Shown here one piece after another: positions 3,686 to 62,185 of a DNA stretch of 64,000 nucleotides. This stretch comes from Flavobacterium sp. (GTDB lineage Bacteria; Bacteroidota; Bacteroidia; Flavobacteriales; Flavobacteriaceae). Each line of letters opens with the position of its first letter. Within the stretch, counting starts at the first letter, position 1. The notes below the pieces were generated by a model. The model searched no databases and was not told where the DNA came from. It saw only the letters and a program-made list of their open reading frames with translations. The translations under genes were made by a program, and so were the position numbers. Where the stretch lies: positions 3,704 through 67,703 of the forward strand of contig NZ_DASWYK010000243.1 of NCBI RefSeq assembly GCF_036405015.1. Direction: 5' to 3'.

Positions 3686-3719
3686 AGGTTCAAAGGCTCA
3701 AAGATACAGAGGTTCAAAG
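3686..3719 (+). repeat. 8-nt-period intergenic repeat arm (AGGTTCAA family)
   Basis: aggttcaa aggctcaa agatacag aggttcaa; relatives at 15953-15986 and 61926-61960, reverse orientation at 13543-13577, 48185-48220, 62152-62185. Confidence 0.8.
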
Positions 3720-3848
3720 TTGAAATGCTGTAGTGAGATTTAGATAGAGAGAACTTTCTTAATTGAAGGTTCTCTTTTATTTTAATCAATTTCGAACAGT
3801 TTAAATAGTCTTTTATTTACATTTGCTGTGATTTAAAAAAAGAGACAT

Positions 3849-4283
3849 TTGGAAAAGTTTGAAATCGATATTAAATGGGGAAGTTATTTGTTTGTTACAT
3901 ATACGGCGACTTCAATTGTAATATCACTTTTAATGTTATTAGTTGATTATGATAGATATTTGTACAATGTTCTTGTACTACTTTTTGTCGTTCAATTAAT
4001 ATATTTTACTAGTAAAGCGATATCCGAAAACAAAAAAAATGATTTAAGTAAAGGCTATAGAAAGTTCTTTGTTTGTATTAGGCTTTTATTTTTCTACTAC
4101 CTTCTTACGTCATTTTTGAATGGAAGCGCAATTACAAATACAGGTAGTTGGTACTTGTCTCTATTTACGCCATATAGGGAAAAAGACATTTCAGAATTAA
4201 TAGCTGAGGATGATCCAAATGATAATAGCATCACTCTTAATGAGTTTATGTTGGCATTAAAAAGAAAGTTTGCCAGAGCATAA
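3849..4283 (+). CDS. Hypothetical membrane protein (TTG start)
   Basis: About 3 hydrophobic segments; TACATTTG promoter-like element upstream; terminator downstream. Confidence 0.65.
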   Translation: MEKFEIDIKWGSYLFVTYTATSIVISLLMLLVDYDRYLYNVLVLLFVVQLIYFTSKAISENKKNDLSKGYRKFFVCIRLLFFYYLLTSFLNGSAITNTGSWYLSLFTPYREKDISELIAEDDPNDNSITLNEFMLALKRKFARA

Positions 4284-4297
4284 AGTATGTAAAAAAT

Positions 4298-4327
4298 AAA
4301 AAACCGCCCAATTTAGGCGGTTTTTTT
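4298..4327. terminator. Bidirectional terminator
   Basis: aaaaaaccgcc-caattta-ggcggtttttt between convergent genes. Confidence 0.8.
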
Positions 4328-4334
4328 ATTTTTT

Positions 4335-4412
4335 AAACTTTGCGACTTAGCGTCTTTGCGAAAAAAAAATCTTGCGAACTTAGCGTAAAACTTTGTGTTC
4401 TTTGCGGTTAAA
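4335..4412. repeat. Two CTTTGCG-family repeat arms
   Basis: 4371-4412 matches 7670-7711 at 37/42; 4335-4361 resembles 38156-38184. Confidence 0.85.
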
Positions 4413-4419
4413 TTGCCAA

Positions 4420-4947
4420 TTATAAGTTGAAAGAAGCTCCTAAACTAAAAGTAGCTTGATTATTCAAATGATAAAAAGGATCATTGTTTGAACCATATTT
4501 TGCAATTGGGAATCCGATTTCTGTGAAAACACCAAATCCGTCAGTAAAGAAATAACGACCACCAACGTGACCTCCAAAATTATGTAAACCTAAGCTTAAA
4601 CCAGGGTAAACATCCAATTGTTCTACACCAATTACACTAGATAAGTTAGCGTTGATTCTTGCTTTTGCATCAAAACGGTCACCGAAATCTGGTGTTGCAT
4701 CATTGTAAGCGGCAGTGCTTCCGTGATAGAAACCATTAAAATTATCAACGCCTAATAAATAATTTGCAACAAAACCAAATGAGAAGTTTTCTCCTAAACC
4801 AAAATCAATAGAACCCTGAATTCCAGAACCACCATCTTGTAAATTAGCACCAACATTTACCCTTGTGTCACCTTTACCTGTAAAGGCGCTTTGTGCATTA
4901 ATAAATCCGAATGATACTAAAAACAAGAGTGTAATAACCTTTTTCAT
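4420..4947 (-). CDS. Outer-membrane beta-barrel-like protein (DUF6646-like)
   Basis: Signal peptide MKKVITLLFLVSFGFINA-Q (start 4947), alternating Gly/aromatic strands, terminal LGASFNL. Confidence 0.75.
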   Translation of the reverse strand: MKKVITLLFLVSFGFINAQSAFTGKGDTRVNVGANLQDGGSGIQGSIDFGLGENFSFGFVANYLLGVDNFNGFYHGSTAAYNDATPDFGDRFDAKARINANLSSVIGVEQLDVYPGLSLGLHNFGGHVGGRYFFTDGFGVFTEIGFPIAKYGSNNDPFYHLNNQATFSLGASFNL

Positions 4948-4998
4948 AAATTTTAAAATATTAATTATTTTGAAGAGCAAAAATAAAATTTAAACAAA

Positions 4999-5733
4999 TT
5001 AATTCCTACCCTTTTCATTAAAATACAATTCGTTTAACGGTTCACTTTGCCAGTATTCCTTAGTGTCGACATCCATAATGGTAAGCGGACCTCTAAAGGC
5101 AGCACCTGTATCGACATTCCAAACGCAGGCTTTGTTTACAGGAACCGTTTTTCCTATTCGTGTAACAGGAGTATGTCCGATGTAAACTTCTTTATAAACG
5201 GTAAATCTTTTAGGATAGTGTAAATCGTCTTCCTTTAATTTTGGATCTAATGAAAGAGCTGTTTCCCAAAGTGTTCTGTCCCAATAAAATAGTTTAGAAA
5301 AATATTCCCATTTTACACCATTTAAATTGGTAAATCCAGCATGAACAAACAAACGATTTTGGTCATCAAGGTAATAATCCTGAAGATTTTCCAAGAATTC
5401 GATATGAGCTTTCTTTTTATCAGCCGAAATTTTGGCATAACCTTCAACAGTTGCTTTTCCGCCGTGTTTGTACCACATTTCTTCATCAAAGTCATCATTT
5501 CTCTCTTCTAGCCAGTCTAGTGCCAGCTGATCGTGATTCCCTCTTATGCAGATGCAGTTTTGTTTGCTTTTTAAATCAATCAAATAGTCGATTACTTCAA
5601 CAGACTGACTCCAGCCGTCAACATAATCGCCCAAAAAAATTAGAGTATCTTCTGTGGTAACTTCGGCTCTCTTCATCACTTGTTCAAGTGCAAGTAATCC
5701 GCCATGAATGTCACCTATAACAAATGTTCGCAT
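4999..5733 (-). CDS. Calcineurin-like metallophosphoesterase (Ser/Thr phosphatase family)
   Basis: GDIHG, GDYVD, RGNHD, GHT, DTGA motifs. Confidence 0.92.
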   Translation of the reverse strand: MRTFVIGDIHGGLLALEQVMKRAEVTTEDTLIFLGDYVDGWSQSVEVIDYLIDLKSKQNCICIRGNHDQLALDWLEERNDDFDEEMWYKHGGKATVEGYAKISADKKKAHIEFLENLQDYYLDDQNRLFVHAGFTNLNGVKWEYFSKLFYWDRTLWETALSLDPKLKEDDLHYPKRFTVYKEVYIGHTPVTRIGKTVPVNKACVWNVDTGAAFRGPLTIMDVDTKEYWQSEPLNELYFNEKGRN

Positions 5734-5872
5734 TATTTAATTTTTCGAGTAGAAGAACAAAAATAAAAAGAATTATTGGTTTGCACTCACCTAATTTATA
5801 TTCTTTAAAAATTGATACTATTTATAACTATTTGAAATCCTTTTTTATTGCTTTCCGCTGTAAATTTGTAGC

Positions 5873-6955
5873 ATGTCTGAAACACCAACATATCGCAAAA
5901 TTATTCATATTGATATGGATGCTTTTTATGCATCGGTCGAGCAGATGGATAATCCTGAGCTGCGTGGAAAACCTGTTGCAGTTGGCGGTTCAGAAAATAG
6001 AGGAGTAGTTTCAGCAGCAAGTTACGAGGCAAGAAAATTTGGTGTAAGAAGTGCAATCAGTGGCGTTTTGGCAAAAAAATACTGTCCGCATATTATTTTT
6101 GTTCGTCCAAGATTTGATCGTTATAAAGAGATTTCATCCAAAATTCATAAAATTTTTAATGAATATACCGATTTAGTTGAACCTCTTTCGCTAGATGAAG
6201 CTTATCTGGATGTTACTCATAATAAAAAAGGAAATCCGAGCGCAAGTTTATTGGCGCAGGAAATCAGAATGAGAATTTTTAATGAAGTTGGTTTAACGGC
6301 TTCTGCGGGAATTTCGATTAATAAATTTGTGGCTAAAATTGCCAGTGATTACAATAAACCAAACGGACAGAAAACGGTAAATCCAGATGAAGTAGAAGCT
6401 TTTTTAGAAGATTTGCCTATTCGGAAGTTCTATGGAGTCGGAAAAGTAACTACAGAAAAAATGTATCAGCTTGGCATTTTTACTGGAACAGATCTCAAAA
6501 GTAAATCCTTGGAGTTTTTAGAGAAACATTTCGGAAAATCGGGTATATTTTATTATCATGTAGTACGTGGAATTCATAATAGTGAAGTAAAATCATCCAG
6601 AATTACCAAATCCGTCGCTGCAGAACATACTTTTGACGTCAATCTTTCTTCTGAAATTTTTATGATTGAGCAACTGGAAAAAATTGCAGCTTCTTTAGAA
6701 AAACGACTCGAAAGACATAAACTTTCAGGAAAAACAATAACGCTTAAAATAAAATACAGTGATTTTTCGCAACAAACCAGAAGTAAAACGATTCCTTATT
6801 TCATCTCCGATAAAAAATTGATTATGGAGAATATACAGGAATTATTATATCAGGAAAAAATGAAAGATTCTGTGAGATTGCTTGGTATTTCGTTAAGTAA
6901 TCTTAATAATGAAATTAAAAAAGAAGTAGTGGTTCAGTTAAAATTTACGTTTTGA
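5873..6955 (+). CDS. dinB: DNA polymerase IV
   Basis: HIDMDAFYASVE, SYEARKFGVRSA, SLDEAYLD. Confidence 0.97.
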   Translation: MSETPTYRKIIHIDMDAFYASVEQMDNPELRGKPVAVGGSENRGVVSAASYEARKFGVRSAISGVLAKKYCPHIIFVRPRFDRYKEISSKIHKIFNEYTDLVEPLSLDEAYLDVTHNKKGNPSASLLAQEIRMRIFNEVGLTASAGISINKFVAKIASDYNKPNGQKTVNPDEVEAFLEDLPIRKFYGVGKVTTEKMYQLGIFTGTDLKSKSLEFLEKHFGKSGIFYYHVVRGIHNSEVKSSRITKSVAAEHTFDVNLSSEIFMIEQLEKIAASLEKRLERHKLSGKTITLKIKYSDFSQQTRSKTIPYFISDKKLIMENIQELLYQEKMKDSVRLLGISLSNLNNEIKKEVVVQLKFTF

Positions 6956-7057
6956 TAACATTTTCGATTCTTAAAAGAGTATTAATGATACTTATTGGGA
7001 GGATTTTTCCTCTATCTTTGGATAAAATATTTATTGATCATTTAAATTGTATTTTAC

Positions 7058-7558
7058 ATGAAAAATAAAAATTCCGAAGATTTTTTACAACGAAATACAG
7101 TTCCAATTCTTTCATGGGACTTTCATCATGAATATATGAAAGAACTGAAAGATTTAACCTATGATCTGGAAAGAGTAAGTAAAATTTCAAGTGAGTTTAC
7201 TTGGGATGAAAAAAAACTGAATATCAGTGAGAGAATCAAAGAAGAAGTCGTTTTGATTACGGATTTGGATTTAAAGATTGTTTTCGCGTCAAGCGGAATC
7301 AAAAAAATGACGGGTTACAAAGAAGAAGAGATTCTCGGAAAAACGCCAAAAATGTTTCAGGGGCCTGCAACTTCTAAAAAAGATTTAAGAGAAATTAGAG
7401 CGGCAGTAAAAAAGAAAATTCCTTTTGAAAAAACACTCGAAAACTACCGAAAAAACGGTAAAACTTATAAATGCAAAATTGATGCTTCGCCAGTTTATAA
7501 ATTAAACGGAGAAATATCACATTTTATAGCTTTTGAAAAACAGGATTTGAGCGCTTAG
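7058..7558 (+). CDS. Stand-alone PAS domain protein (LOV-like, lacks photoactive Cys)
   Basis: MTGYKEEEILGKTPKMFQGP...ENYRKNG; no output domain. Confidence 0.85.
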   Translation: MKNKNSEDFLQRNTVPILSWDFHHEYMKELKDLTYDLERVSKISSEFTWDEKKLNISERIKEEVVLITDLDLKIVFASSGIKKMTGYKEEEILGKTPKMFQGPATSKKDLREIRAAVKKKIPFEKTLENYRKNGKTYKCKIDASPVYKLNGEISHFIAFEKQDLSA

Positions 7559-7564
7559 ATTTTG

Positions 7565-7711
7565 TTTAACCGCAAAGAACGCAAGGATTTACGCAAGGCA
7601 CGCTAAGATAAAAAAAGGAAAAACCGTCCAAATAGGACAGTTTTTCCTTTTTTTATAAATAAATTTTTCTTTGCGAACTTTGCGTAAATCCTTGCGTTCT
7701 TTGCGGTTAAA
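7565..7711. repeat. Perfect 32-bp inverted repeat enclosing a bidirectional terminator
   Basis: tttaaccgcaaagaacgcaaggatttacgcaa (7565-7596) is the exact reverse complement of 7680-7711; terminator hairpin about 7610-7654 inside. Confidence 0.95.
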
Positions 7712-7716
7712 GAAAA

Positions 7717-9321
7717 TTACAAATCAGCAAAGAAATCATTTCCTTTATCATCTGTGATAATAAATGCTGGGAAATCTTTAACGGTGATTTTACGAACAGC
7801 TTCCATTCCTAATTCTTCAAAATCAACTACTTCAACTTTTAGAATGTTGTCCTGAGCTAAAATAGCAGCTGGACCTCCGATAGAACCTAAGTAGAATCCG
7901 CCGTATTTGTTGCAGGCATCAGTAACTTGTTTGGTACGGTTTCCTTTTGCCAACATAATCATACTTCCGCCATTTTTCTGGAATTCATCTACATAAACGT
8001 CCATACGTCCAGCAGTTGTTGGTCCGAAACTTCCTGAAGCCATTCCGTCTGGAGTTTTTGCTGGACCAGCATAATAAACTGGGTGATTTTTAAAATATTC
8101 CGGCATTGGTTTTCCAGCGTCTAACAATTCTTTGATTTTTGCGTGAGCAATATCACGAGCAACAATCACAGTTCCGTTAAGTTTTAAACGTGTTTTAACT
8201 GGATATTGAGATAATTTTGCTAAAATATCTGCCATTGGTTGATCTAAATCAATCTCTACAGGGGCTTCTAAATGTGGAGCTGTTTCTGGTAAAAATTGTT
8301 TCGGATTTACTTCTAATTGCTCTACGAAGATTCCGTCTTTCGTAATTTTTCCTTTGATATTTCTATCAGCAGAACAAGAAACACCTAATCCAACCGGACA
8401 AGAAGCCGCGTGACGAGGCAAACGGATTACACGAACGTCGTGCGTGAAATATTTTCCTCCAAATTGTGCTCCAATGGCACTTTCTTGACAGATTTTTTGA
8501 ACTCTTTCTTCCCATTCAAAATCACGGAAAGCCTGACCAGACATGTTTCCAGTAGTTGGAAGATGATCATAATATCCTGCGGATGCTTTTTTTACAGCGC
8601 TTAAGTTGGCTTCTGCAGAAGTTCCGCCAATTACCAAAGCTAAGTGATATGGAGGACAAGCAGAAGTTCCTAAATCTTTGATTTTATTGCGAATGAATTC
8701 ATCTAAAGACTTTTCGTTCAACAAAGATTTTGTCTGTTGGTATAAATAAGTTTTGTTTGCAGATCCTCCGCCTTTTGCCATAAACAAAAAGTCGTAAGAA
8801 GTTCCTTTTTTAGCATAAATATCAATTTGTGCCGGAAGATTTGATCCTGAATTTTTCTCTTCAAACATCGAAATCGGAACAATCTGCGAATAACGTAGGT
8901 TTCTTTTTTGATAAGTATTAAAAATTCCACGGCTTAACCATTCTGCATCATCAACACCCGTAAAAATGCTTTCGCCTTTTTTTGCCATTACAATCGCTGT
9001 TCCAGTATCCTGACAGCTTGGTAACTGACCTTCGGCAGCAACAGAAGCATTTTGAAGTAAATTGTAAGCTACGAAACGATCATTATCTGTGGCTTCTGGA
9101 TCATCAAGGATTTTTCTAAGTTTTTGCAAATGAGTCGTTCTTAGCATAAACGAAACATCTGTTAATGCCTCTTCTGCTAGTAATTCTAAACCTTTTGGAT
9201 CAACAGTTAAAACTTCGCGTTCTCCAAATTGTTCCACTTTCACAAAATCTGAGGTGATTTTGCGGTACTGCGTATCATCCTTTAAGATCGGATAAGGATC
9301 TTGGTATATAAAATCAATCAT
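7717..9321 (-). CDS. fumA: Class I (Fe-S) fumarate hydratase
   Basis: [30 protein letters not shown]. Confidence 0.95.
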
Positions 9322-12417: not shown

Positions 12418-13491
12418 TTATTCAATGACAATTTTGGTTTCCATATAATGCTCAAAAGCTTTAATTCCTTCAAACAAAATCTCTTTTCTAGAATTTTCGG
12501 TTTCATTAAAAAATTCCGTTTCTATCTTGACATGATCTTTTTTAATGGTTCTTTTCCAAATTCCAATCACTTTTCCGTTTTCTAAAATAATGGGTTTAAA
12601 AATGCCATTATTGGTAAAAACTTTAGATTGATGTTCTGTATTGAAAGACGCTTCACGTGTTTTATACGAAATTAAAATCTCATCAAACGCAGGAAGAAAA
12701 TGTACGCTTTCGCGAAAGTCATTCTCTTTAGTGTCCTCTTTTTTAAACCAATATAGCTGATTATCAATAGAGATAGAGTTTAATTGCAACTCTATTGCGT
12801 TAATTGCATTCTTGCAGATTGTTGGCGCAAAACCAGACCACCAAGAGAAATCAAGCAACGTTGCGGGACCATGACTTTCAAAATAACGTTGTGCAAGTTT
12901 TGCCAGCGCTTCCTCTTTGCTTAATTTGAATTTTGGTTTAGAAACCCTTTCTTCGAGCAAAGCATACGTAATTTGTTTGCCTTTCATTCTTCCGTTGCAG
13001 ACTAAGCCATCCAATTCGGCATTCATCATAATGGCAGCACTTAGAAAATCTTCCTTTGAGGTTTTTTTGATATTAAGTTCCTGCATGATTTCATCGCGAG
13101 TCAAATGATTGTTTCCTGCCAGTAACTTTTCTATAGAAGAATTGACCTGATTTAGCTTTTTCTCATCATAACCAAATTTTTTTGCTGCAGAATTGGTGAA
13201 ACGTTTTACCTGCGGAGCAGAAAGCTCAAGCATCCAATAAATGTCATCTGAAGCAACAAAATGCCAAGTTGGACGCAAAATATGGGTTCGAATAATCTTA
13301 GCCGAATTTACAGCTTCTTCAATCTCTTTTTCTGATGAATCGCAACGAGAACCAATCGCCCATTTTGCCATCGCATAATCCTGCGCCTGCATCGCACCAA
13401 AATGTTTTACCACTTCTTGTGGCGTACAAGTGCTCGTTTTATACAAATTTTGAGCAACCAAACGATGATGTGAAATTTCCTCGTGCGTCAT
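12418..13491 (-). CDS. AlkZ/YcaQ-family (HTH_42) DNA glycosylase
   Basis: AMQAQDY (QxQ), RTHILRPTWH, FLPAFDE; probable start MTHEE at 13491. Confidence 0.85.
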   Translation of the reverse strand: MTHEEISHHRLVAQNLYKTSTCTPQEVVKHFGAMQAQDYAMAKWAIGSRCDSSEKEIEEAVNSAKIIRTHILRPTWHFVASDDIYWMLELSAPQVKRFTNSAAKKFGYDEKKLNQVNSSIEKLLAGNNHLTRDEIMQELNIKKTSKEDFLSAAIMMNAELDGLVCNGRMKGKQITYALLEERVSKPKFKLSKEEALAKLAQRYFESHGPATLLDFSWWSGFAPTICKNAINAIELQLNSISIDNQLYWFKKEDTKENDFRESVHFLPAFDEILISYKTREASFNTEHQSKVFTNNGIFKPIILENGKVIGIWKRTIKKDHVKIETEFFNETENSRKEILFEGIKAFEHYMETKIVIE

Positions 13492-13497
13492 TTTTTT

Positions 13498-13577
13498 AAC
13501 CATATAAGTGATATAAGTTAATTTTAGATTGCTATTGCAAAACCTTTGTAGCTATGAACCTTTGCAACTTTGAACCT
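13498..13577. repeat. Chimeric repeat site: 9-nt-period left arm plus 8-nt-period right arm
   Basis: aaccatataagtgatataagt (13498-13518, identical to 15039-15059) and ctttgtag ctatgaac ctttgcaa ctttgaac (13544-13575). Confidence 0.8.
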
Positions 13578-13583
13578 TAAGAT

Positions 13584-14297: not shown

Positions 14298-14314
14298 AAT
14301 TTTGTTATGGGTTT

Positions 14315-14504
14315 GCCACGAATTCACGAATTGAACAAATTCTTAATTTGATATAAATGTACACAAATTTGATTTTATTATTTTTTGAAAATTAAAATAG
14401 AGTGAATTTTCTTATATTTAAAATATTGAAGAAATAATTGATTGTATTTTAGTTAAAGAAAATTCGTGAATTGCTACGCCAGTCGCTATCGCTCGAGTCG
14501 TGGC
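14315..14504. repeat. GCCACGAATT-family inverted repeat pair, right arm interrupted by a 26-nt insert
   Basis: Left gccacgaattcacgaatt (14315-14332, identical copy at 27498-27515); right aattcgtgaatt[insert]cgtggc. Confidence 0.85.
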
Positions 14505-14511
14505 GAAAAAA

Positions 14512-14988: not shown

Positions 14989-15038
14989 ATTTTTTGAACC
15001 GTAAAGAGGTTAATAGCAAAGTTCGCGAATTTTTTTTG

Positions 15039-15110
15039 AACCATATAAGTGATATAAGTTCATTTAATTAATTCTTTAAAATTTAAATTACTTATATCAC
15101 TTATATGGTT
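15039..15110. repeat. Perfect 21-bp inverted repeat with AT-rich spacer
   Basis: aaccatataagtgatataagt / acttatatcacttatatggtt. Confidence 0.92.
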
Positions 15111-15124
15111 TAATAATATGTGGT

Positions 15125-15940: not shown

Positions 15941-16037
15941 TTTTTTGTTTTGAGGTGCAAAGTAACAAAGGTACAGAGTTGCAAAGTTTTTTGAGCTATA
16001 AAGAAAAAGGCAGATTTAAAATCTGCCTTTGTTTATA

Positions 16038-21185: not shown

Positions 21186-21209
21186 ATAATCTTTGACTAA
21201 ACGCCACGA

Positions 21210-21507
21210 AATACAATTAAACCCGACAGGCTTTTAAAACCTGTCGGGTTTTAAATTTTGAATGATTCATTCCGTAGGAATGTTTGGTCGGTAGAATTAG
21301 ATTGAGGTTTGCAGTGGTACGTTCCGTAGGAACGTTTGATTATTTGTGTGTCGTAAATCAAGTGTTCCTATGGAGCACAATTCCCAACCATGCTATTTTT
21401 TCTACCGACGAGATATTCCTACGGAATATTGAAAATTGTAATTAATATTCTTTTTTCTGTATAGCAAACCCGACAGGTTTTTAAAACCTGTCGGGTTTAA
21501 TTGTATT
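21210..21507. mobile_element. REPIN/MITE-like composite: palindrome doublet with nested 159-bp element
   Basis: Outer 42-bp inverted repeats (40/42) 21210-21251 and 21466-21507; inner arms 21269-21296 and 21400-21427. Confidence 0.75.
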
Positions 21508-27497: not shown

Positions 27498-27725
27498 GCC
27501 ACGAATTCACGAATTTTTTATTTGCGATAGCTAATGAGATAAATTATTTTAAAATCTAGAAAAGTAATTTCACGAATTTTTTCTGTTAAGATAAAAAATA
27601 AATCTGCTCAATCTGCGAGAGACTTTTTTACCACAAATTCCGCAAATTAGCACAAATTGCTTTCTGTTAAGATACAAAAATAAATCTGTGTAAATTCGTT
27701 TAAATCCGCGTCATCCGTGTTCCAT
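27498..27725. repeat. Mosaic of short-period repeat arms with a duplicated 27/28-bp spacer
   Basis: tttctgttaagata(c)aaaaataaatctg at 27580-27606 and 27661-27688. Confidence 0.8.
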
Positions 27726-36163: not shown

Positions 36164-36181
36164 TATATGAATTTTAGAGTG

Positions 36182-36189: not shown

Positions 36190-36295
36190 AGCAATAGAAT
36201 TGAGATTTTAATATTACACAGAGATGCGTGGAGGATTTTTCGCAGAGATTCGCTAAGTTTTTTTTTGAATTTGGTTCTCGCAATGTCTAAAAGGT

Positions 36296-36455
36296 TTACG
36301 CAGAGAACGCAAAGATGTATTTTATTAAAGATTAAGAAGATCTAAATATTGAGTTCGCTAAGCTGTATTTACACAAAGCTTTGTGAACTTTTCATTTTGT
36401 AAAAACTCAAAAAAACTTCGTGCTCTTTGCGTAAATCTTTGCGTTCTCTGCGTAA
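36296..36455. repeat. CTTTGCG-family inverted pair (21-bp perfect arms)
   Basis: ttacgcagagaacgcaaagat (36296-36316) / atctttgcgttctctgcgtaa (36435-36455). Confidence 0.9.
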
Positions 36456-38027: not shown

Positions 38028-38038
38028 TTTTTTTTGCT

Positions 38039-38184
38039 GCTAAGGCACTAAGGCGCAAAGTTTTATTGTTTCACGCAGATTTTTAAAGATTTAGGCAGAT
38101 CATGCAGATCACTTGTTTGAGAAATTTCGATTTATATTCTTCGATTCTTAATAAAAAAACTTTGTGCCTTAGCGTCTTCGTGGC
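38039..38184. repeat. Imperfect inverted pair of 8-nt-period arms with another family's arm inside
   Basis: gctaaggcactaaggcgcaaagtttt / aaaactttgtgccttagcgtcttcgtggc; gcagat units at about 38071-38110. Confidence 0.75.
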
Positions 38185-38280
38185 AAAAACACACATAAAA
38201 TAGAACCAGTTTAAACTACGTTTCCCGCTTATAAATGAGAATATATTTCGCAATCTTTGCATCCGAAAAAAACAAAATTT

Positions 38281-41039: not shown

Positions 41040-41048
41040 ACTCGATGC

Positions 41049-45351: not shown

Positions 45352-45356
45352 TTTTT

Positions 45357-45433
45357 AGTTTACAGTCACAGTCTCAGTTTTCGGTAAAGAAAACTGGGGC
45401 GGCGACTGAAAACTGAGACTGAAAACTGACACT
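45357..45433. repeat. CAGT/ACTG 6-7-nt-period inverted element, copy 1
   Basis: agtttacagtcacagtctcagt ... gactgaaaactgagactgaaaactga. Confidence 0.85.
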
Positions 45434-45435
45434 AA

Positions 45436-46278
45436 ATGAAAAACGGTATCTTAAACTGGAACGTGGATCCCGTTATATTCTGGATTACAGATAGTTTTCC
45501 TCTTAAATATTACGGAGCGCTTTTTGCCTGCGGACTTCTTCTCGGGTTTTACATTGTCAGAAACATTTACAAAAAAGAAAATCTTTCCTTAGACAATCTC
45601 GATTCTTTACTTATTTATGTCATTGTCGGAACCGTTTTAGGTGCGAGACTTGGACATTGTTTCTTTTACGAACCTGATTATTTTCTCAAACATCCGATAG
45701 AAATTCTTTTACCAATTCAAAAAATAAAAGGAGCTTATCAATTTGTAGGTTATCAAGGTTTGGCAAGTCATGGAGGTTCGATTGGAGTGATTACGGCGAT
45801 GATTTTATATTGTCGAAAATATAAAGTACAATTCTTAGGACTTTTGGATAAAATGGCGGTTGCAGTTCCTGTAACGGGCGCTTTTATCAGAATGGGGAAT
45901 TTTATGAATTCTGAAATTTATGGAAAACCAACCAACGGAAATTGGGGAGTAGTTTTTCAAAGAGACGATTTGATTCCGAGACATCCAACACAATTGTATG
46001 AAGCTTTTGCTTATGTAATGATTTTCGTAATCCTGTTTTATATGTATAAATCGGAGAAAATTAGAAATGCGCAGGGATTAATCTTTGGAACTTTCTTAAC
46101 TTTATTATTTACAGCTCGTTTTATAATTGAATTTTTCAAAGAAAATCAAGAAGCTTTCGAGAATGATATGCTGATTAATATGGGACAGATTTTAAGTATT
46201 CCCTTCATTTTGATTGGTTTAGGATTGATTTTTTGGAAAAAGAGAATAGTCACAGTTGACAGTGACAGTTTACAGTAA
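45436..46278 (+). CDS. lgt: Prolipoprotein diacylglyceryl transferase
   Basis: GARLGHC, GLASHGG, IRMGNFMNSEIYG, HPTQLYE. Confidence 0.96.
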   Translation: MKNGILNWNVDPVIFWITDSFPLKYYGALFACGLLLGFYIVRNIYKKENLSLDNLDSLLIYVIVGTVLGARLGHCFFYEPDYFLKHPIEILLPIQKIKGAYQFVGYQGLASHGGSIGVITAMILYCRKYKVQFLGLLDKMAVAVPVTGAFIRMGNFMNSEIYGKPTNGNWGVVFQRDDLIPRHPTQLYEAFAYVMIFVILFYMYKSEKIRNAQGLIFGTFLTLLFTARFIIEFFKENQEAFENDMLINMGQILSIPFILIGLGLIFWKKRIVTVDSDSLQ

Positions 46279-46314
46279 GCTTAGACTGAAAACTGCGACT
46301 GCGACTGAAAAACT
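46248..46314. repeat. CAGT/ACTG element, copy 2 (overlaps lgt stop)
   Basis: agtcacagttgacagtgacagtttacagt ... gactgaaaactgcgactgcgactgaaaaact. Confidence 0.85.
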
Positions 46315-48103: not shown

Positions 48104-48227
48104 AATTCAATTTATAAATTCCAAATTCCAAAAAAGAAAGATTAGAAATAGGAGGAAATCTGTTTGTAAGTTCCGAGAGATAACCTCAGAACCTTAGCAT
48201 CTCAGAACCTCAGAACCTTAAAAAAAA

Positions 48228-51491: not shown

Positions 51492-51602
51492 ATTTTTGCC
51501 ACAAATTAACGGATTGCAGTGATTTAAGATCTCTAAAATCTGCGTAATTTACAGGCGAAAAATATACTGTTAATTTGCCATCATAAATTCAAACCAAGAA
51601 GT

Positions 51603-52379: not shown

Positions 52380-52472
52380 ATTTAAAGAAATTCCAATATT
52401 TTAAATTCCAAATTCCAATTTTCTTATTGGGATTTGGAATTTTTTGTTTTACGAAGATTGAATGGTCTGGTT

Positions 52473-52565
52473 TGTCATTCTGAGGAACGAGGAATCTCAC
52501 TAGTAATTCAACAAACAATCACACGATGGATATTCGATTGTGATTCTTCGTTCCTCAGAATGACA
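52473..52565. repeat. REP-doublet-like inverted repeat (93 bp)
   Basis: tgtcattctgaggaacgaggaatc / gattcttcgttcctcagaatgaca (one mismatch). Confidence 0.88.
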
Positions 52566-52582
52566 AAAAAGGTTAGGTATTT

Positions 52583-53740: not shown

Positions 53741-53982
53741 TTGGGAATATTTTCAGAAGATTTATGACGGATTTTTGGTAATCCTTGCACTTTCAAAGTT
53801 AAAAAAAAATCGGTGTAATAAAAAGTGATTTGCTATGAAGGCGAAAAGGCTCGAAGTTTTTTTGTGTTTTTTAGCTGTTGAATTTTTTCTTTGCGACTTT
53901 CTGTCTTGACGAGATAAACTAAGACGTAAACAAAAATCTTAAACATTTCCCGTATTTTTGTCATTATAAAATTCAATACAAA

Positions 53983-57000: not shown

Positions 57001-58098
57001 ATGGGATTATTTAGTAGAAATAATAAGATTGAAAAACCTGAGGTTGTTCTTGAATTAAGAAGTCCTAGTTGCCCAATAACAGCAATTGTAGAACAAGATA
57101 ACAGAACGGCTTATTTTTATTTGTTTGGAGATAATGAAGATTTTGGTGTTAAAAGCTGCTGGATACGAAATTTAACTGTGGCACCAGAGGAGATAGAGGT
57201 AAAATTAATGGAAAAAGGTGTGCCTCCAATGTTAACTAAAGAGTTTTGCAAATTTCCGCAAGGACAGGAAACACTTAATAAAGATAATCTGGAAATAGTC
57301 TGGCTCGAAGAAGGAGATGGAGCCGCATTACTTGAAAATGGAGAGGTTTTATGTGTAATTCCGAGCTGGGGTGGCGGCGGAGAATTTTATGGATATGCTA
57401 GAGATTGTAAAGGAGAGGGGTACTTTGCCTGGGAGCTTTCAGTAGATAATGAAATGTACAAACGTGTTAAAAGCGCAATTTCTTTTGAAAAAGCTTGGGA
57501 CGACGAAAGAAATCCTTTTCAGTTACTGCAACCCAAAATTCTAGATTATTACGACGAAATATTTGGAAAAAGCGAAAAGTACTATGCAATCGATAATTCG
57601 GAGTGGCCACCAAAAGGACTGTATGTTTATGAAGGTCCTGAAAAGGTTGTATTTGCAACGGTAGCAGTATCATTACGATCTCAACCTAAGATCGAAATGT
57701 ATTTTGAAAACCCAAACGAAGTGAATAGAATCGAACTTGGAATTATTTTAAAGTCCGGATTAACAAATGAACAAACAAATAGTGTTGCAAGCTTTGTAAG
57801 TGGTATTACGGCAATTCCTTGGGATTATATTACTTTCTTGGCAGAAGGGCATACTATAGAGTTTCAGACATTAGTGAGTGAAAAATTTAAATACGGAGTT
57901 CTTACCAATAAATTAAAAGTTTTACCTCAGATGAATGTGCCTGCTTATGGAAATTCAAAAACCAATTTTTTATGGATCGTACCTGTTTCAGATACAGAAT
58001 GGGAGGTAATGAAAGAATCTGGATCGCAATTTATATTAGATAAACTGGATAATATTGGTGAAGAGATATTCAATTTGGAACGAGAAGAAGTTGTTTAA
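57001..58098 (+). CDS. Suppressor-of-fused (SUFU)-like domain protein
   Basis: C-terminal FATVAVS..Q, RIEL, EGHT, FLWIVPV..TE pattern. Confidence 0.75.
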   Translation: MGLFSRNNKIEKPEVVLELRSPSCPITAIVEQDNRTAYFYLFGDNEDFGVKSCWIRNLTVAPEEIEVKLMEKGVPPMLTKEFCKFPQGQETLNKDNLEIVWLEEGDGAALLENGEVLCVIPSWGGGGEFYGYARDCKGEGYFAWELSVDNEMYKRVKSAISFEKAWDDERNPFQLLQPKILDYYDEIFGKSEKYYAIDNSEWPPKGLYVYEGPEKVVFATVAVSLRSQPKIEMYFENPNEVNRIELGIILKSGLTNEQTNSVASFVSGITAIPWDYITFLAEGHTIEFQTLVSEKFKYGVLTNKLKVLPQMNVPAYGNSKTNFLWIVPVSDTEWEVMKESGSQFILDKLDNIGEEIFNLEREEVV

Positions 58099-58109
58099 GA
58101 ATACGGTAT

Positions 58110-58156
58110 AAAAAAGAAAAACTCATAAGATTTACGCTTATGAGTTTTTCTTTTTT
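58110..58156. terminator. Bidirectional terminator
   Basis: aaaaaagaaaaactcataag / cttatgagtttttctttttt 20-bp arms. Confidence 0.85.
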
Positions 58157-58167
58157 ATGATTAATTA

Positions 58168-59976
58168 TTAATCTTCCTTCTCAGATAATTTCTTTTCCAA
58201 TTCAATCTGAAATTCTTCAATAACCGGTTTCATTGTGCTTTCAGGAATATCAGCAATTCTAATGTACATTAAACCATCAATTGCATTGTTGAATAAAGGG
58301 TCAACGTTAAAAGCTACTACTCTTGCATTTTGTTTGATGTATTTTTTAATTAAAACAGGTAAACGTAAATTTCCTGGTTCTAATTCGTCAATGATTTTAT
58401 CAAACTTATTCAAATCAGATTCGGCTTCGTCGAAAATGAAATCTTTATCAGCGTCTTTTAGTTTTACTTTGTACGCTTTTTTCGGGTGAATATATTGCGC
58501 AATATACGGATCGTAGTAGTTTGATTTCATGAACTCAATCATCAATGATTTAGAGAAATCTGAAAATTGATTACTAATACTTACGCCACCAACCAAATAT
58601 TTATGTTCTGGATGACGTAAAGTAGTATGAATAATACCTTTCCACAATAAAAACAAAGGCATTGGCTTCTGCTGATATTCTTTTACAATAAAAGCACGGC
58701 CCATTTCGATCGACTTGTGCATCATATCGTGAAGCTCAGGTTCAAATCTGAAAAGATCTGTCAGATAGAAACCTTCAATTCCGTATTTTGGATAGATTTC
58801 AGAACCTAATCCCATACGATACGCTCCAGCGATTTTCTTAGTTTCATCGTCCCATAAAAACATATGGTGATAATATTGATCGTACTCATCTAAGTCAATA
58901 GATTCGTTTGTTCCTTCACCAACTTCACGGAAAGTGATTTCGCGAAGACGTCCAATTTCGTGTAAAATGTTCGGAATTTCTTTTGCGCTTGCAAAGAAAA
59001 CTTCGTAGTTTTTACTTTGTAAAAATCGGCTGTCACTGTTTCGTAAAGACTGAACTTCATCAATTAATTTTGATTCGTTTGCAGGCGTTACAATTTTTTT
59101 AGGCGCTTTTGTGATTTTAAGACTCGCCGTTGCAGTGTCAATCAATTTCGTGTCTTTTTCGAAAGGATTAGCCAGCATATAAGTTTTCTTTCTTAAGAAT
59201 TCTGAATATTCTTCGAAAGATTCTATCTCGTTTTGCTCATTGACAGAAATCGGTTTTCCAATACGAACTTTAATAACACGGTCTTTCTGCGTTAAAAGTT
59301 CAGATGGAAGTTTTGCTGTTCTTAACGTGTCATCAATTTTAGAAAGCCAATAGAATAATTTACTGTTTTTGGCATGAAAATAAATTGGAACCACAGGAAC
59401 TTTTGCTTTTCTGATTAATTTCAGCGCACCTTCTTCCCAAGGTTTATCAACAACTAATTTTCCATCTTTATAAGTCGAAACTTCACCAGCAGGGAAAATT
59501 CCCAAAGGTTTTCCGTCGCTTAAGTGACGTAAAGTTTCTTTAATTCCGATTACGCTCGATTTTGCATCCTTATGATTTTCAAAAGGATTAACCGGCATGA
59601 TGTATTTTTTCATCGGAACAATTCTGTGTAACAAGAAATTGGCAATGATTTTGAAATTTGGCTCTCTTTCAAGCATCAATTTCAATAATAAAATTCCATC
59701 AATTCCTCCAAGTGGATGATTGGAAATTGTAATATAAGCACCATCTTTTGGCAGACGTTTTAAGTCTTCTTCAGGGATTTCGAATTTGATTTCCATTTCA
59801 TCCAAAATTCCGTTCAAAAACGCAAGGTCTTCCAAATGTTTATTACGATCGTAAATTTTATTAAGGGTAGAGATCTTAAGAACTTTCATAAGAATCCAGC
59901 CAGAAAAAGTACCGAGAACCCCGTACTTTTCAACATTTATTGCCTTTGCAACTTCTTTCGCGGTAACTAAACCCAT
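58168..59976 (-). CDS. olsF: Bifunctional PlsC-type acyltransferase plus GNAT N-acyltransferase (OlsF-like)
   Basis: NHPLGGID and IFPAG (LPLAT); GRLREITFR, IAGAYRMG, IEMGRAF (OlsB-type GNAT). Confidence 0.7.
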   Translation of the reverse strand: MGLVTAKEVAKAINVEKYGVLGTFSGWILMKVLKISTLNKIYDRNKHLEDLAFLNGILDEMEIKFEIPEEDLKRLPKDGAYITISNHPLGGIDGILLLKLMLEREPNFKIIANFLLHRIVPMKKYIMPVNPFENHKDAKSSVIGIKETLRHLSDGKPLGIFPAGEVSTYKDGKLVVDKPWEEGALKLIRKAKVPVVPIYFHAKNSKLFYWLSKIDDTLRTAKLPSELLTQKDRVIKVRIGKPISVNEQNEIESFEEYSEFLRKKTYMLANPFEKDTKLIDTATASLKITKAPKKIVTPANESKLIDEVQSLRNSDSRFLQSKNYEVFFASAKEIPNILHEIGRLREITFREVGEGTNESIDLDEYDQYYHHMFLWDDETKKIAGAYRMGLGSEIYPKYGIEGFYLTDLFRFEPELHDMMHKSIEMGRAFIVKEYQQKPMPLFLLWKGIIHTTLRHPEHKYLVGGVSISNQFSDFSKSLMIEFMKSNYYDPYIAQYIHPKKAYKVKLKDADKDFIFDEAESDLNKFDKIIDELEPGNLRLPVLIKKYIKQNARVVAFNVDPLFNNAIDGLMYIRIADIPESTMKPVIEEFQIELEKKLSEKED

Positions 59977-60094
59977 GTAGTACTTTTAATTTATTAGAAC
60001 AGCGAACAAAGATAACAAAAAAGTCTACTTTTCATTGTTTCCAAGACAAACTTTGCACTTTTTTATTACATTTGAAATCCAAAAAAAATCACTG

Positions 60095-60856
60095 ATGAAA
60101 ATTATTTCTTATAATGTAAACGGAATTAGAGCCGCAATAAACAAGGGTTTTATTGAGTGGCTGAAACAAGCAAATCCTGATGTAATCTGTCTTCAGGAAA
60201 TAAAAGCTACTCAGGATCAAATTCCGGTTGACGATATAACGGCAGCTGGTTATCCTTTTCAATATTATTATCCTGCTACTAAAAAAGGCTACAGCGGAGT
60301 AGCTATTCTTTCTAAAACAAAGCCAAATAATATTGTTTACGGAACAGGAATTCATCATATGGATTTTGAAGGTCGAAATCTTCGTGCCGATTTTGACGAT
60401 GTTTCTGTGATGAGTTTATACCTTCCATCTGGAACGAATATCGAAAGATTAGACCATAAGTTTATGTTTATGGATGATTTTCAGAATTATATTAATGAAT
60501 TGAAAATTACGATTCCGAATTTGATTATTTGCGGTGATTACAATATCTGTCACGAAGCAATCGATATTCATGACCCAGTTCGCAACAAAACCGTTTCTGG
60601 ATTTCTTCCGGCTGAACGCGCTTGGTTAGATGCTTTTATGAAATCGGGATTTATTGATAGTTTCCGTCATTTTAATAAAGAGCCACATCATTATTCTTGG
60701 TGGAGTTACCGTGCAGGAGCAAGAGGAAATAACAAAGGCTGGCGTATTGACTACAATTTGGTGAGCAATGCATTAGAAAACAGATTAAAAAGAGCTGTTA
60801 TACTACCAGATGCTATGCATTCAGATCATTGTCCGATTTTAGTTGAGATTGACTAA
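60095..60856 (+). CDS. xth: Exodeoxyribonuclease III
   Basis: SYNVNGIR, LQEIK, GYSGVA, GDYN, WRIDY, SDHCP. Confidence 0.97.
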   Translation: MKIISYNVNGIRAAINKGFIEWLKQANPDVICLQEIKATQDQIPVDDITAAGYPFQYYYPATKKGYSGVAILSKTKPNNIVYGTGIHHMDFEGRNLRADFDDVSVMSLYLPSGTNIERLDHKFMFMDDFQNYINELKITIPNLIICGDYNICHEAIDIHDPVRNKTVSGFLPAERAWLDAFMKSGFIDSFRHFNKEPHHYSWWSYRAGARGNNKGWRIDYNLVSNALENRLKRAVILPDAMHSDHCPILVEID

Positions 60857-60981
60857 TTTTTGGTATTGTTCTTGCAGAGAAGAATTTCAGTTCTAAAAAT
60901 GACTGGAATTTAGAATTTCCTAAATTGCTTTTTAGACGAAAAAAGATTTATTAAACGCCCCAGAAATAAAAACAAAGAAAG

Positions 60982-61926
60982 ATGATAAAAAAAGCCTCCA
61001 TCGGATTGCTGGCATTAGCCTTGTCCACGACGTCTTGTGTTTCAAAGAAGATTTACAATGACTTAGAAACAAAGTATTCAGATTTGAAAAAAGAAAATCG
61101 TTCGATTACAGATGAAAATGAAAATCTGAAGAAAGCAAAAAATCAATTAGAGTTAGATCGTGATAAACTGACTAAAGATTTGGCGAGTACTAAAGATGAG
61201 TTGGCAAAGCAAAAAGCTGATCTTGCAGCTGAACAAAAGAAATATAAAGTTTTACAGGATTCTTATAATGCATTAGAGAAAAACAGCAACGACGCATTGG
61301 AGAAAAACCTAGCTAAAAACCGTGAATTGTTAGCGCAGTTAGAAGCAAAAGGTAAAGCTCTAGCAGAAGAACAAGCTCGTTTGGACAAAACAGCAAGTCG
61401 TTTGAAAGAATTGGAAGATATGATTGCGGCTAAAGAAGAAGCAATGCGTAAACTGAAAGAAACTTTATCTAAAGCCTTAACCGGTTTTGAAGGTAAAGGT
61501 TTAACAGTAGAACACAAAAACGGAAAAGTTTATGTTTCTATGGAAAACAAATTACTTTTCAATTCAGGAAGCTGGGCTGTTGGATCAGAAGGTAGAAAAG
61601 CGGTTGTAGAACTTGGAAAAGTCTTAGGTGACAATCCAGATCTTTCTGTTTTAATTGAAGGACATACAGATGATGATCCGTATGCAGGTTCAGGACCAAT
61701 TGCAAATAACTGGGATTTATCTACTAAAAGAGCCACTGCAATCGTAGCGATTTTAAGTGAAAACCCAAAAATCAATAAACAAAAACTAACAGCAGCGGGT
61801 AGAAGCGAATTTTCTCCTTTGGCAAGCAACGCAACTCCAGAAGGAAAAGCAAAAAACCGAAGAATCGAAATCATCTTGACGCCAAGATTGGATGAGATTG
61901 CTGAGATGTTGAATAGCATAAACTAA
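60982..61926 (+). CDS. Coiled-coil lipoprotein with OmpA/MotB peptidoglycan-binding domain
   Basis: STTSC lipobox; IEGHTD, NWDLSTKRA, NRRIEI. Confidence 0.9.
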   Translation: MIKKASIGLLALALSTTSCVSKKIYNDLETKYSDLKKENRSITDENENLKKAKNQLELDRDKLTKDLASTKDELAKQKADLAAEQKKYKVLQDSYNALEKNSNDALEKNLAKNRELLAQLEAKGKALAEEQARLDKTASRLKELEDMIAAKEEAMRKLKETLSKALTGFEGKGLTVEHKNGKVYVSMENKLLFNSGSWAVGSEGRKAVVELGKVLGDNPDLSVLIEGHTDDDPYAGSGPIANNWDLSTKRATAIVAILSENPKINKQKLTAAGRSEFSPLASNATPEGKAKNRRIEIILTPRLDEIAEMLNSIN

Positions 61927-62185
61927 GGGACAGAGGTTCTAAGGTGCAAAGGCTCAAAGGTTTTTACTTTTGAGCCTTTTTTAATTTACAATTTCTGGAA
62001 TTGTAATCCTGCAAGGTTTTTAAAACCTTGTAGGTTTAGCTTGTGTTTGGATTGAACTTATAAATACCTACAAGGTTTTGAAAACCTTGCAGGAAGGCGT
62101 AAAAATCTTGTACTTTTTTTAACCTTTCTCACATTTCTATTTGAAAAATCCCTTTGTACCTTTGTCTCTTTGCAACTTTGAACCT
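61926..62185. repeat. Nested repeat: 8-nt-period arms enclosing a palindrome doublet
   Basis: Outer arms 61926-61960 / 62152-62185; inner palindromes 62008-62034 and 62067-62093. Confidence 0.85.

Follow-up and report, generated by a model that had tools for sequence, protein, structure and literature searches.

Intergenic tandem-unit arms in a Flavobacterium genome as probable gene-less relatives of hairpin-bounded GxxExxY and four-helix-bundle cassettes

Introduction

Arrays of short tandem units between genes have been reported, without a mechanism, since 1990 from cyanobacteria, Beggiatoaceae, Geobacter and Bacteroidetes. Here, such arrays are described for a stretch of 64,000 nt from a Flavobacterium species (contig NZ_DASWYK010000243.1, positions 3,704 to 67,703; referred to as the window), in which intergenic arms of iterated units occur alone or as inverted pairs. 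Elsewhere in the same genome, arms of this kind enclose small genes for GxxExxY proteins or four-helix-bundle proteins and form hairpin-bounded cassettes, and the arms of the window are probably relatives of these cassettes that lack the gene. The repeats themselves have been partly described before, but no paper was found that links them to these two gene families; neither the repeat words nor GxxExxY led to a relevant publication in literature searches.

The intervening sequences of 23S rRNA consist of a long stem around an open reading frame (ORF) for a four-helix-bundle protein (PF05635), and this stem would be a natural substrate of RNase III. The cassettes described here likewise have a long stem enclosing a small gene of the same family, but they lie between protein genes instead of in rRNA, and their stems are heptamer arrays. 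MITEs (miniature inverted-repeat transposable elements), Correia elements and the foldback elements of Drosophila likewise have inverted repeats at their ends, transcripts that form hairpins and a surplus of copies without a gene, with foldback arms being composed of short tandem units. The Flavobacterium elements differ from them in that they lack target-site duplications and any DDE transposase with matching ends, and in that the interiors of long elements are not conserved. The heptamer repeats of cyanobacteria (short tandemly repeated repetitive sequences, STRR) were reportedly described by Mazel and colleagues in 1990. The small dispersed repeats of Nostoc, reportedly treated by Elhai and colleagues in 2008, are said to be mobile inserts of 21-27 nt that sit precisely inside other repeats without target duplication; they resemble a 27-nt mini-insert found here, although sequence and host differ.

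In the systems formed by repetitive extragenic palindromic (REP) sequences, their hairpin doublets (REPINs) and REP-associated tyrosine transposases (RAYTs), many gene-less hairpin doublets coexist with few flanked genes, the repeat family is tied to the gene variant, target duplication is lacking and the repeats lie at gene 3' ends, as is the case here (Bertels and Rainey 2011, PMC3116915; Di Nocera et al. 2013, PMC3733652). The differences are that their cargo is a Y1 HUH transposase rather than a GxxExxY (PD-(D/E)XK fold) or four-helix-bundle protein, and that their repeat is a compact GC-rich palindrome with a GTAG/CGTC tag rather than an array of 7-9-nt units. In Geobacter metallireducens, sites of three to five tandem 7-9-nt units, arranged mostly as opposite-strand pairs at variable distance, form several unit classes with tens of intergenic copies each, and the part of Aklujkar 2009 (PMC2700814) that treats the paired sites interprets them as targets of unidentified global regulators (IHF/HU). 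Compared by this published description, they are like the arrays of the window in all these features and unlike them in unit sequence, and that part of the paper draws no link to small cargo genes. TAACTGA heptamers occur patchily in Beggiatoaceae, cyanobacteria and five Bacteroidetes, for which horizontal spread was suggested with 'no mechanism evident' (MacGregor 2015, PMC4679880). The STRR and TAACTGA repeats share with the present arrays intergenic tandem heptamers in fixed orientation to the next start codon and a patchy occurrence among phyla; they are described as direct repeats with a single inverted case, whereas inverted pairing is frequent here and comes with a cargo gene, and the heptamers found here have other sequences (AGATTTT, AAATTCC, GTTTCAR and others). 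For Flavobacterium, a MITE census lists 713-2,579 conserved MITEs, and a REP census table gives thousands of candidate REPs in two genomes.

Materials and methods

The window (C243:3704-67703) was taken from an assembly of 5.33 Mb in 265 contigs with a G+C content of 33%; contigs are denoted by C and their number. The fumarase encoded in it shares 97% identity with the F. reichenbachii enzyme, and the window matched contigs of the NCBI assembly GCA_035714145.1 at 99.6-100%. Genes were approximated by a rough model in which ATG-start ORFs of at least 70 aa were chosen longest first and overlaps were excluded; this gave 4,433 genes, between which lay 3,059 gaps with a length of 30 nt or more. 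To locate cassettes, the genome was scanned generically for ORFs enclosed by inverted repeats at a distance of 150-1600 nt. An earlier scan (arms defined by regular expressions, ATG-only ORFs of at least 70 aa), which counted 21 forward-to-reverse and 62 reverse-to-forward pairs at gene-size distance, was a false negative. The window was aligned with the syntenic 64 kb of two relatives, G001 and G012 (80-90% identity), and with 39 kb of strain S (ENA ERZ1029167, 94% identical), which was reached by exact-protein look-ups along the record. Tallies of homologues enclosed by arms, in this genome and in others, were counted by eye. A scan of the window against Rfam at the gathering threshold gave no match.

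Gene-carrying cassettes

A full cassette consists of a T-run, a forward arm of 2-5 units of 7-9 nt, about 400-570 nt with one small gene, an inverted arm and an A-run. Judged by sequence, one class is predicted to encode a GxxExxY protein (TIGR04256/PF13366, PD-(D/E)XK fold) and has arms of 8-9-nt units that start with RCCRY (types AAC(C)GCAAAG, GCCACAGATT-AAAAGGATT, GCCAC(A/G)AATT and AACCATATAAGT). The other is predicted to encode a four-helix-bundle protein (TIGR02436/PF05635, the 23S rRNA intervening-sequence family, related to the protein Avd of diversity-generating retroelements) and has heptamer arms, for example of AGATTTT.

All three GxxExxY genes of the genome lie in or adjoin tandem-unit arms. 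The gene at C213:10587-10964 has outer arms AACGCAAAG and inner arms AAGTTCACAAAGC, the gene at C125:41-412 is placed between GCCACAGATTAAAAGGATT arms (type GCCACAGATT-AAAAGGATT), and the third, split across two contig ends, adjoins AACCATATAAGT arms; these arm types are the ones that begin with a T-run and RCCRY. Among the six four-helix-bundle genes, four are located between heptamer-array arms 390-470 nt apart, with AGATTTT as one of the arm families. Neither gene family is represented in the window, which contains gene-less forms only. At 36293-36455, the outer and inner arms of the C213 cassette are present without the gene, and the right end of this relic (36351-36455) can be aligned with the C213 cassette and with a cassette of F. 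saccharophilum. Five tandem gene-less units of 180 nt at C6:4440-5560 carry the arms of the C213 cassette, and their right halves align with its end and likewise with the F. saccharophilum cassette. A comparable run with a spacing of 85 nt was seen on contig C30 of the relative G003.

The arms accompany homologous genes in other genomes. Homologues of the C213 protein were enclosed by AACC(G/A)CA(A/G)AG arms in 13 of 18 sampled cases, including Spirosoma, Brocadiaceae, Treponema and Calditrichia at 69-75% protein identity. For the C125 protein, 17 of 18 sampled homologues were enclosed and the 18th had a hairpin alongside. The arm sequence is specific to the protein clade: C125 homologues at least 76% identical have GCCACAGATT-AAAAGGATT arms, those 63-70% identical have GCCAC(A/G)AATT-ACACAAATT or AACCGCAAATT arms (the types found at 14315, 27498, 27630 and 51498 of the window), and the C213 protein, with its own arms, shares 32% identity with the C125 protein, giving three arm types for three identity bands or clades. 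Four-helix homologues lay within heptamer arrays in 17 of 18 sampled cases from more than eight phyla, with varying units and a range that includes Flavobacterium, Bdellovibrio, Planctomycetota, Anaerolineae, Acidobacteriota and Nitrospinota.

The residues E27, D67 and E77xK79 do not vary among ten GxxExxY proteins that represent two clades (~30% identity), which corresponds to the signature of PD-(D/E)XK nucleases. At least ten CWAAG arrays were found only where a GxxExxY gene was present (14/14 against 0/6 in a comparison of 30 genomes; one-sided Fisher p ~0.013, computed by hand). The only solved homologue of the four-helix cargo protein is PDB 2RLD (E 1.6e-15), deposited with five chains, and the related protein Avd is a pentamer; binding by a pentamer of this kind might correspond to the number of units in an arm, which is usually 4-5.

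Other single genes between forward-to-reverse tandem arms were noted at C217:3102-4118, C36:14204-14816, C191:16110-16875 and C201:20988-21761. These loci encode a PF09859 oxygenase, a HopJ-family protein and two lipoprotein-like ORFs, and such ordinary-looking genes are either other cargo or bracketed by chance.

Distribution and structure of the arms

The arrays are far more frequent than expected. Triple CWRAG units with period 8 matched 13 times in the window and never in 100 shuffles, and 405 intergenic arrays of period 5-12 were counted genome-wide, against 84-104 in dinucleotide shuffles (about fourfold), with a density of 0.67 per kb in intergenic and 0.07 per kb in coding DNA (ninefold). 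Triple CWAAG units occurred 201 times at period 8 and not at all at periods 7, 9 or 10. Internal periodicity was found in 71 of 855 intergenic hairpin arms and in 3 of 855 shuffled ones. In an all-against-all comparison of gaps, 13.4% of intergenic bases matched at least three other gaps, and clustering sorted some 2,000 repeat segments into 30 or more families, with arms recurring in up to 60 gaps and AGATTTT as the commonest heptamer family of the genome. The multi-copy parts of the window were the arms, the long spacers between them being unique. Repeats accounted for 26% of convergent, 13-16% of co-directional and 3.7% of divergent gaps. On folding, the segment at 7562-7711 formed one hairpin (-87 kcal/mol, z -16); four other elements gave z values of -3.5 to -9.4, and the mixed-family gap at 48104 did not fold.

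An original prediction, made from the sequence of the window, had proposed that an array is followed by an inverted arm. This design is frequent (107 of the 405 arrays had an inverted partner within 250 nt, against 11 in a reversed-sequence control) but not obligatory, as CWRAG arrays were solo in 114 gaps and paired in 47. A start with a T-run and RCCRY, also proposed, holds for the GCCAC, AACCGC and AACCAT arms, directly upstream of which the T frequency is 0.55-0.94, and is not universal; a terminal motif common to all hairpins was ruled out, as GCCAC begins only 53 of 1429 intergenic hairpins.

Orientation was fixed in all nine families tested, with forward arms in the left half and reverse arms in the right half of gaps. 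Forward copies of CWRAG arrays were distributed 128 left to 14 right and reverse copies 26 left to 117 right, and adjacent arms of the same family less than 350 nt apart were arranged forward-to-reverse in 281 cases and reverse-to-forward in 14. The arms occupy the gap edges, so that the left gene is followed by a T-run and an arm, and the right gene is preceded by an arm and an A-run. CWRAG arrays have a sharp upper limit of 4-5 units, each with a strongly conserved 5-nt core and a nearly free 3-nt linker. The choice of A or T in the core agrees between neighbouring units (0.89 against 0.52), and partner arms are only moderately alike (0.61, against 0.48 for random pairs). The 43-nt AACCGCAAAG arm, by contrast, retains an irregular order of units at more than 40 loci here and at about 30 per genome in four relatives; it must have been copied.

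The elements differ between relatives. The gap 3' of the fumarase gene is free of arms in F. reichenbachii and contains a right arm alone in the relative G008; six other species have different arm families there, among them CACAAAGT in F. saccharophilum, CACAGATT in F. cheonanense, CGCAAATT in F. myungsuense and GGTTCAAAG in the relative G015. An 89-nt AACCATATAAGT hairpin at 15035 is missing from G012, and a palindrome doublet at 61987-62100 from G001 and strain S. The whole hairpin module at 46265 is tandem-duplicated in strain S and G001, interiors were replaced between retained arms at 36164 and 38028, and a half palindrome stands against a full one at 41040. The arms at 61923 and 62149, ~190 nt apart, changed together from CAAAG/CTTTG to CTAAG/CTTAG in G012; unit number can also change in one arm alone. 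Hairpins are nested in the loops of other hairpins at 21186, 38028 and 61927 and on contig C69. Comparisons of filled and empty sites at 14321, 14473, 27504, 27507 and 15035 (80-94% identity) revealed no target duplication, nor was one seen with the events at 61987-62100, 46265 and 41040.

Discussion

We favour the interpretation, which we consider likely though well short of certain, that most arms of the window are gene-less (non-autonomous) copies or half-copies of hairpin-bounded cassettes of at least two classes. It builds on the association of arms with genes, its spread across phyla and co-variation with protein clade, the gene-less homologues of cassettes, the polarity and turnover of the arms and their nested insertion without target duplication. 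By comparison with RAYTs and REPINs and with transposases and their inverted repeats, the cassette proteins may recognise and move the arms, in which case the iterated units would be the recognition sites. Copies of cassettes and of their hairpin derivatives would be inserted at T|A-rich sites and within other hairpins' loops, the intermediates probably being single-stranded hairpins or cruciforms. Where the gene between the inner arms was lost, hairpins would remain, and later nested insertion, unit slippage and decay would give rise to distant arms, solo arms and mosaics, with arms being tolerated where the gap has a gene 3' end. A history of nested insertion would explain old arms at gap edges, unique or mosaic interiors, fixed polarity, solo arms and the moderate likeness of partners. 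A secondary role of the arms in mRNA processing or insulation is possible.

The original prediction had assigned the elements to one mobilisation or recombination system with diversified sequence specificity. The diversity is borne out by the co-variation of GxxExxY clade and arm sequence, whereas the idea of a single system has to be given up in view of at least two cargo classes, two RAYT/REP families and several palindrome families without tandem units. Of the genes anticipated between arms elsewhere in the genome, GxxExxY and four-helix-bundle genes were indeed found enclosed, whereas RAYT/TnpA genes were not, the RAYTs carrying other REPs. Loci were gained and lost between relatives and genes were associated with the arms, in contrast to the elements fixed without polymorphism or a gene that would have spoken against the prediction. 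Within the families tested, the window lacks a transposase as predicted: the two Y1_Tnp genes, the single rve gene and all GxxExxY and four-helix matches are located on other contigs.

Several observations weigh against the cassette interpretation. Two of the six four-helix-bundle genes lack convincing arms. The families nnnCWRAG (GGTTCAAAG-type), CAGT and AAATTCC (the last including the heptamer hairpins at 48116 and 52388), which contribute much of the arrays of the window, yielded no cargo gene, and the assembly contains no GxxExxY gene of the clade matching GCCACGAATT arms despite about 80 such hairpins. Across genomes, array number does not scale with gene number. Five-slot CWRAG arrays all differ from one another (116/116), and their linker combinations show a likeness of 0.736 against 0.732 in a column-shuffled null, indicating a combinatorial make-up without master copies; together with the unit limit and the conserved core, this resembles selection for a periodic motif, or some generative process, more closely than copy-and-paste. 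Most arrays remain in orthologous gaps (80-94% identity) while their units change, and the spacers of long-range pairs have no counterpart elsewhere. Arms and other intergenic DNA were 87% and 92% identical in strain S and 87% and 86% in G001; these values do not bear out a faster evolution of arms, only indels being about twice as common. The combinatorial arrays, the cargo-less families and the conservation of position keep regulatory, structural or passenger explanations in play.

According to the first of these, the arrays are cis-acting regulatory or structural sites under selection, bound by a host protein at translation starts, mRNA 3' ends or in chromosome structure, and the small genes merely sit there. 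Such roles were argued by MacGregor 2015 (PMC4679880) and in the part of Aklujkar 2009 (PMC2700814) that deals with the paired sites, and they would suit arrays that adjoin stop and start codons, keep a strict period of 8 with conserved core, free linkers and limited unit number, are each unique in the CWRAG family, hold orthologous gaps while the units of both arms change together, and resemble their partners more than random arms. We nevertheless regard this explanation as unlikely, because dozens of unrelated units would require dozens of binders, the same gap is array-less in the close species F. reichenbachii, arrays are seven times rarer in divergent (promoter-only) than in convergent gaps, and two selfish-looking gene families are tightly linked to the arms across phyla, with arms co-varying with the protein. 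An origin or spread of the hairpins by host processes such as slippage, template switching at palindromes and ectopic gene conversion, with GxxExxY and four-helix genes as passengers homing into the loops (like the intervening-sequence ORFs of 23S rRNA) instead of mobilisers, appears improbable to a similar degree. Hairpin loops are favoured insertion sites, gene-less hairpins vastly exceed genes, hairpin modules are duplicated locally in tandem, one-arm changes in unit number occur and the genome is nearly without transposases, all as expected for passengers; yet the arm tracks the protein clade and the gene-plus-arms unit is kept across phyla at 72-75% protein identity, which argues for co-transfer and specific recognition rather than opportunistic lodging. 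Rho rut sites, promoter -33/-7 boxes, uptake sequences and invertible promoters were dropped as candidates, since each fits at most one unit family by its sequence.

Mobilisation as REPINs by the two RAYT (Y1 HUH) transposases is very improbable. The genome does have two RAYT genes (Y1_Tnp, PF01797), the window contains one REP doublet of the type associated with the RAYT of contig C121 (21269-21427), and inverted hairpin doublets far outnumber genes (281 forward-to-reverse pairs against a handful). However, each RAYT is flanked only by its own compact REPs (GTTCCnnnGGAAC plus GGTAG, and GCTCCGCTGGAGC), which have no tandem units and are unlike the arm families, so that a RAYT/REPIN identity of the tandem arms was rejected; a compact palindrome of 20-40 nt with a GTAG/CGTC tag was seen in the window at this doublet only, whereas the arms are 18-54 nt of iterated units without a tag. 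DDE_Tnp_1 and TnpB genes were not found in the genome, the single rve gene belongs to an unrelated IS3-like element beside a tRNA, and no protein family of the genome exceeded two copies. Derivation as a MITE of a DDE insertion sequence was likewise discarded, there being no target-site duplication and no transposase gene with the same inverted ends. Hardly any credence is left for ordinary intrinsic terminators or chance AT-rich repeats without common origin, a view also opposed by the original prediction. The elements are located at gene 3' ends and several enclose a true terminator, but the T-run lies 5' and the A-run 3' of the stem; as RNA, the arms would thus be long stems without a U-tract, which are not terminators, and the true terminators are separate inner hairpins. 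The recurrence of the arms and their large excess over shuffles refute this view.

Repeats of this and other short types amount to about 13% of the intergenic DNA of this genome, and the link to cassettes could explain puzzling intergenic 7- to 9-base repeats of many bacteria. If correct, it would give a testable role to the repeats and to two very large, functionally unassigned families (TIGR04256 and TIGR02436), could account for the fixed orientation of repeats at gene ends, would offer annotators grounds against calling the arrays regulators, terminators or small ORFs, and would represent a new sequence-specific pairing of protein and DNA with many natural arm/protein variants. A wider proposal is put forward tentatively, with rather less than even confidence: GxxExxY and Avd-like four-helix proteins may be the specific partners of transposase-free hairpin cassettes across phyla, the 7-9-nt units their recognition code, and the STRR, TAACTGA and Geobacter arrays gene-less relics.

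Elements of the window

Every gap of the window was inspected, and the elements named in the original prediction were recovered with a displacement of at most 1-2 nt: CAGT/ACTG hairpins at 45354-45436 and 46248-46314, AAATTCC heptamers at 48116-48129 and 52388-52442, nnnCWRAG octamers at 3686-3719, 15952-15986, 61923-61959 and 62152-62180, CTTTGCG arms at 4338-4412 and 7559-7717, CACGAATT at 14315 and 27498, CATATAAGT at 15033-15116 and AATCTGCTC at 27598-27620. Integron gene cassettes were considered on account of the similar layout; the neighbours of the arrays are core housekeeping genes in conserved order.

The array at 3686..3719 (forward strand) is solo, consists of four nnnCWRAG units (GGTTCAAAG GCTCAAAG ATACAGAG GTTCAAAG) and comes directly after a T-run and the stop codon at 3676; further downstream (3746-3777) lies a terminator hairpin of the ordinary kind. 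Two reverse-strand arms of the CGCAAAG type (CTTTGCGACTTAGCGTCTTTGCG; TCTTGCGAACTTAGCGTAAAACTTTGTGTTCTTTGCGGTTAAA) at 4338..4412 are located to the right of a terminator (4298-4326) without a left partner. The whole gap at 7559..7717 forms one hairpin of ~70 bp, in which paired AACCGCAAAG-type arms (CTTTGCG; 7559-7612 and 7664-7717, 89% complementary) enclose a locus-specific terminator hairpin (7608-7656). Such a central terminator was not accepted as proof that arms had been added around an old hairpin, as AAAAACCGCC...GGCGGTTTTT hairpins recur at other loci.

At 13498..13519, the solo forward arm AACCATATAAGTGATATAAGTT supplies the CAT that constitutes the start codon of the minus-strand gene 12418-13503; the start (13498-13503) sits in the AACCATATAAGT arm (AACCAT|ATAAGT), and the arm thus provides the gene start. 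It is followed at 13541..13578 by a solo array on the reverse strand (four CTTTG/CTATG nnn units), which G001 and G012 also have at this position, but composed of other units (CTTTGTCC; CTTAGCAT). The element at 14312..14511 comprises a GCCACGAATTCACGAATT arm (14315-14332), a unique AT-rich spacer of 128 nt and an inverted partner (14461-14504), which is interrupted by a 26-nt mini-insert (14473-14498). A degenerate forward arm of the CGCAAAG type at 14990..15029 (GAACCGTAAAG...GCAAAGTTCGCGAA) is intact in the G012 orthologue (AACCGCAAAGGCGCAAAAG...). The complete AACCATATAAGT hairpin at 15033..15116 (arms 15033-15069 and 15080-15116), whose loop is also multi-copy, is missing at the orthologous site of G012. 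A further solo forward array at 15952..15986 (GTGCAAAG TAACAAAG GTACAGAG TTGCAAAG) adjoins the start of a minus-strand gene. The region 21210..21498 falls outside the tandem-unit class and contains AAACCCGACAGG palindromes (21210-21251 and 21466-21498) on either side of the REP doublet of the C121 RAYT family.

The gap at 27498..27661 is a mosaic of a GCCACGAATTCACGAATT forward arm (27498-27515), a reverse array of AATCTGCTC/AATCTGCGAG (27598-27620) and a forward arm ACCACAAATT CCGCAAATT AGCACAAATT (27630-27661). Its first arm carries a 27-nt mini-insert in strain S and G012 that is not present in the window. The gene-less GxxExxY-cassette relic extends over 36215..36455 and includes an extra forward arm (36215-36256), the outer left arm (36293-36314), an inner palindrome (GAGTTCGCTAAGC...GCTTTGTGAACTT, 36351-36390) and the outer right arm (36416-36455). 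At 38031..38189, the outer arms GCTGCTAAGGCACTAAGGCGCAAAG and CTTTGTGCCTTAGCGTCTTCGTGGC enclose a GCAGAT array (38072-38113), the interior in strain S and G001 being another palindromic element.

The CAGT/ACTG hairpin at 45354..45436 (period 6-7) fills the gap between serS and lgt and is present in G001, G012 and strain S with changed unit number. The second one (46248..46314) is tandem-duplicated in strain S (+110 nt) and G001 (+51 nt); its left arm (46248-46278) contains the last codons and the stop codon of lgt, whose product has 276 aa in strain S and 280 aa here. G001, G012 and strain S all retain the gene order serS-lgt-TPR with arrays in both gaps, and for this reason lgt does not appear to be cargo inserted recently. 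In the mixed gap at 48116..48219, two AAATTCC units (48116-48129) are combined with a reverse array of CTCAGAAC/CTTAGCAT (48181-48219) without a hairpin fold (z -0.6), and a different palindrome with TTAGA units is found there in G001 and G012. The GCCACAAATT...AATTTACAGGCG hairpin at 51497..51570 is conserved together with its spacer in strain S, G001 and G012. This conservation of the spacer (GCCACAAATT...CAGGCG, 51492-51602, after an MgtE-family gene) is unlike that of other elements, and the hairpin may have acquired a function. The AAATTCC/GGAATTT heptamer hairpin at 52388..52442 has arms at 52403-52419 and 52426-52442 (z -6). The arms GCTATGAAGGCGAAAAGGCTCGAAG and CTTTGCGACTTTCTGTCTTGACGAG at 53829..53913 are situated in a divergent gap and retained in strain S, G001 and G012 with other units. 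The long-range pair at 61923..62188 is composed of a forward array (61923-61959), which follows the stop codon of an ompA-family gene, and a reverse array (62149-62188), which ends 7 nt upstream of the next ATG. Nested between them at 62004..62094 is a non-tandem CCTGCAAGGTTTT-AAAACCTTGTAGG palindrome doublet that is missing in G001 and strain S.

The mini-insert is constant and 26-27 nt long (A/C-C-Y-CGAGCGATAGCGAAC-W-GGCGAAGC), is itself made of GCGA units and has 24 copies in the genome. It lands precisely inside the arms of several repeat families, at G^AATT or GA^AAT, and its removal restores an intact arm without target duplication. At the same arm it is present or absent across relatives (window 14473-14498; strain S at 27507; G012 at 14321 and 27504). 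It is also hosted by a separate palindromic family (TTTGTCATT(T/C)CGA(C/G)GAAGGAGAAATCTCC...) of about 86 genome segments, for example at 52471-52567 of the window. Relatives differ by gain and loss of this family, which in strain S and G001 is seen at the counterparts of the gaps at 36164 and 38028. Repeat-rich gaps serve as insertion sites for small gene modules: at L121:15480-16263 of strain S (corresponding to 61927-62195 of the window), an antitoxin gene, a ParE-family toxin gene and an AAATTCC hairpin lie between the same outer arms. Gene pair and hairpin are flanked by a direct duplication of the terminator GGCTCAAAGGTTTTTACTTTTGAGCC.

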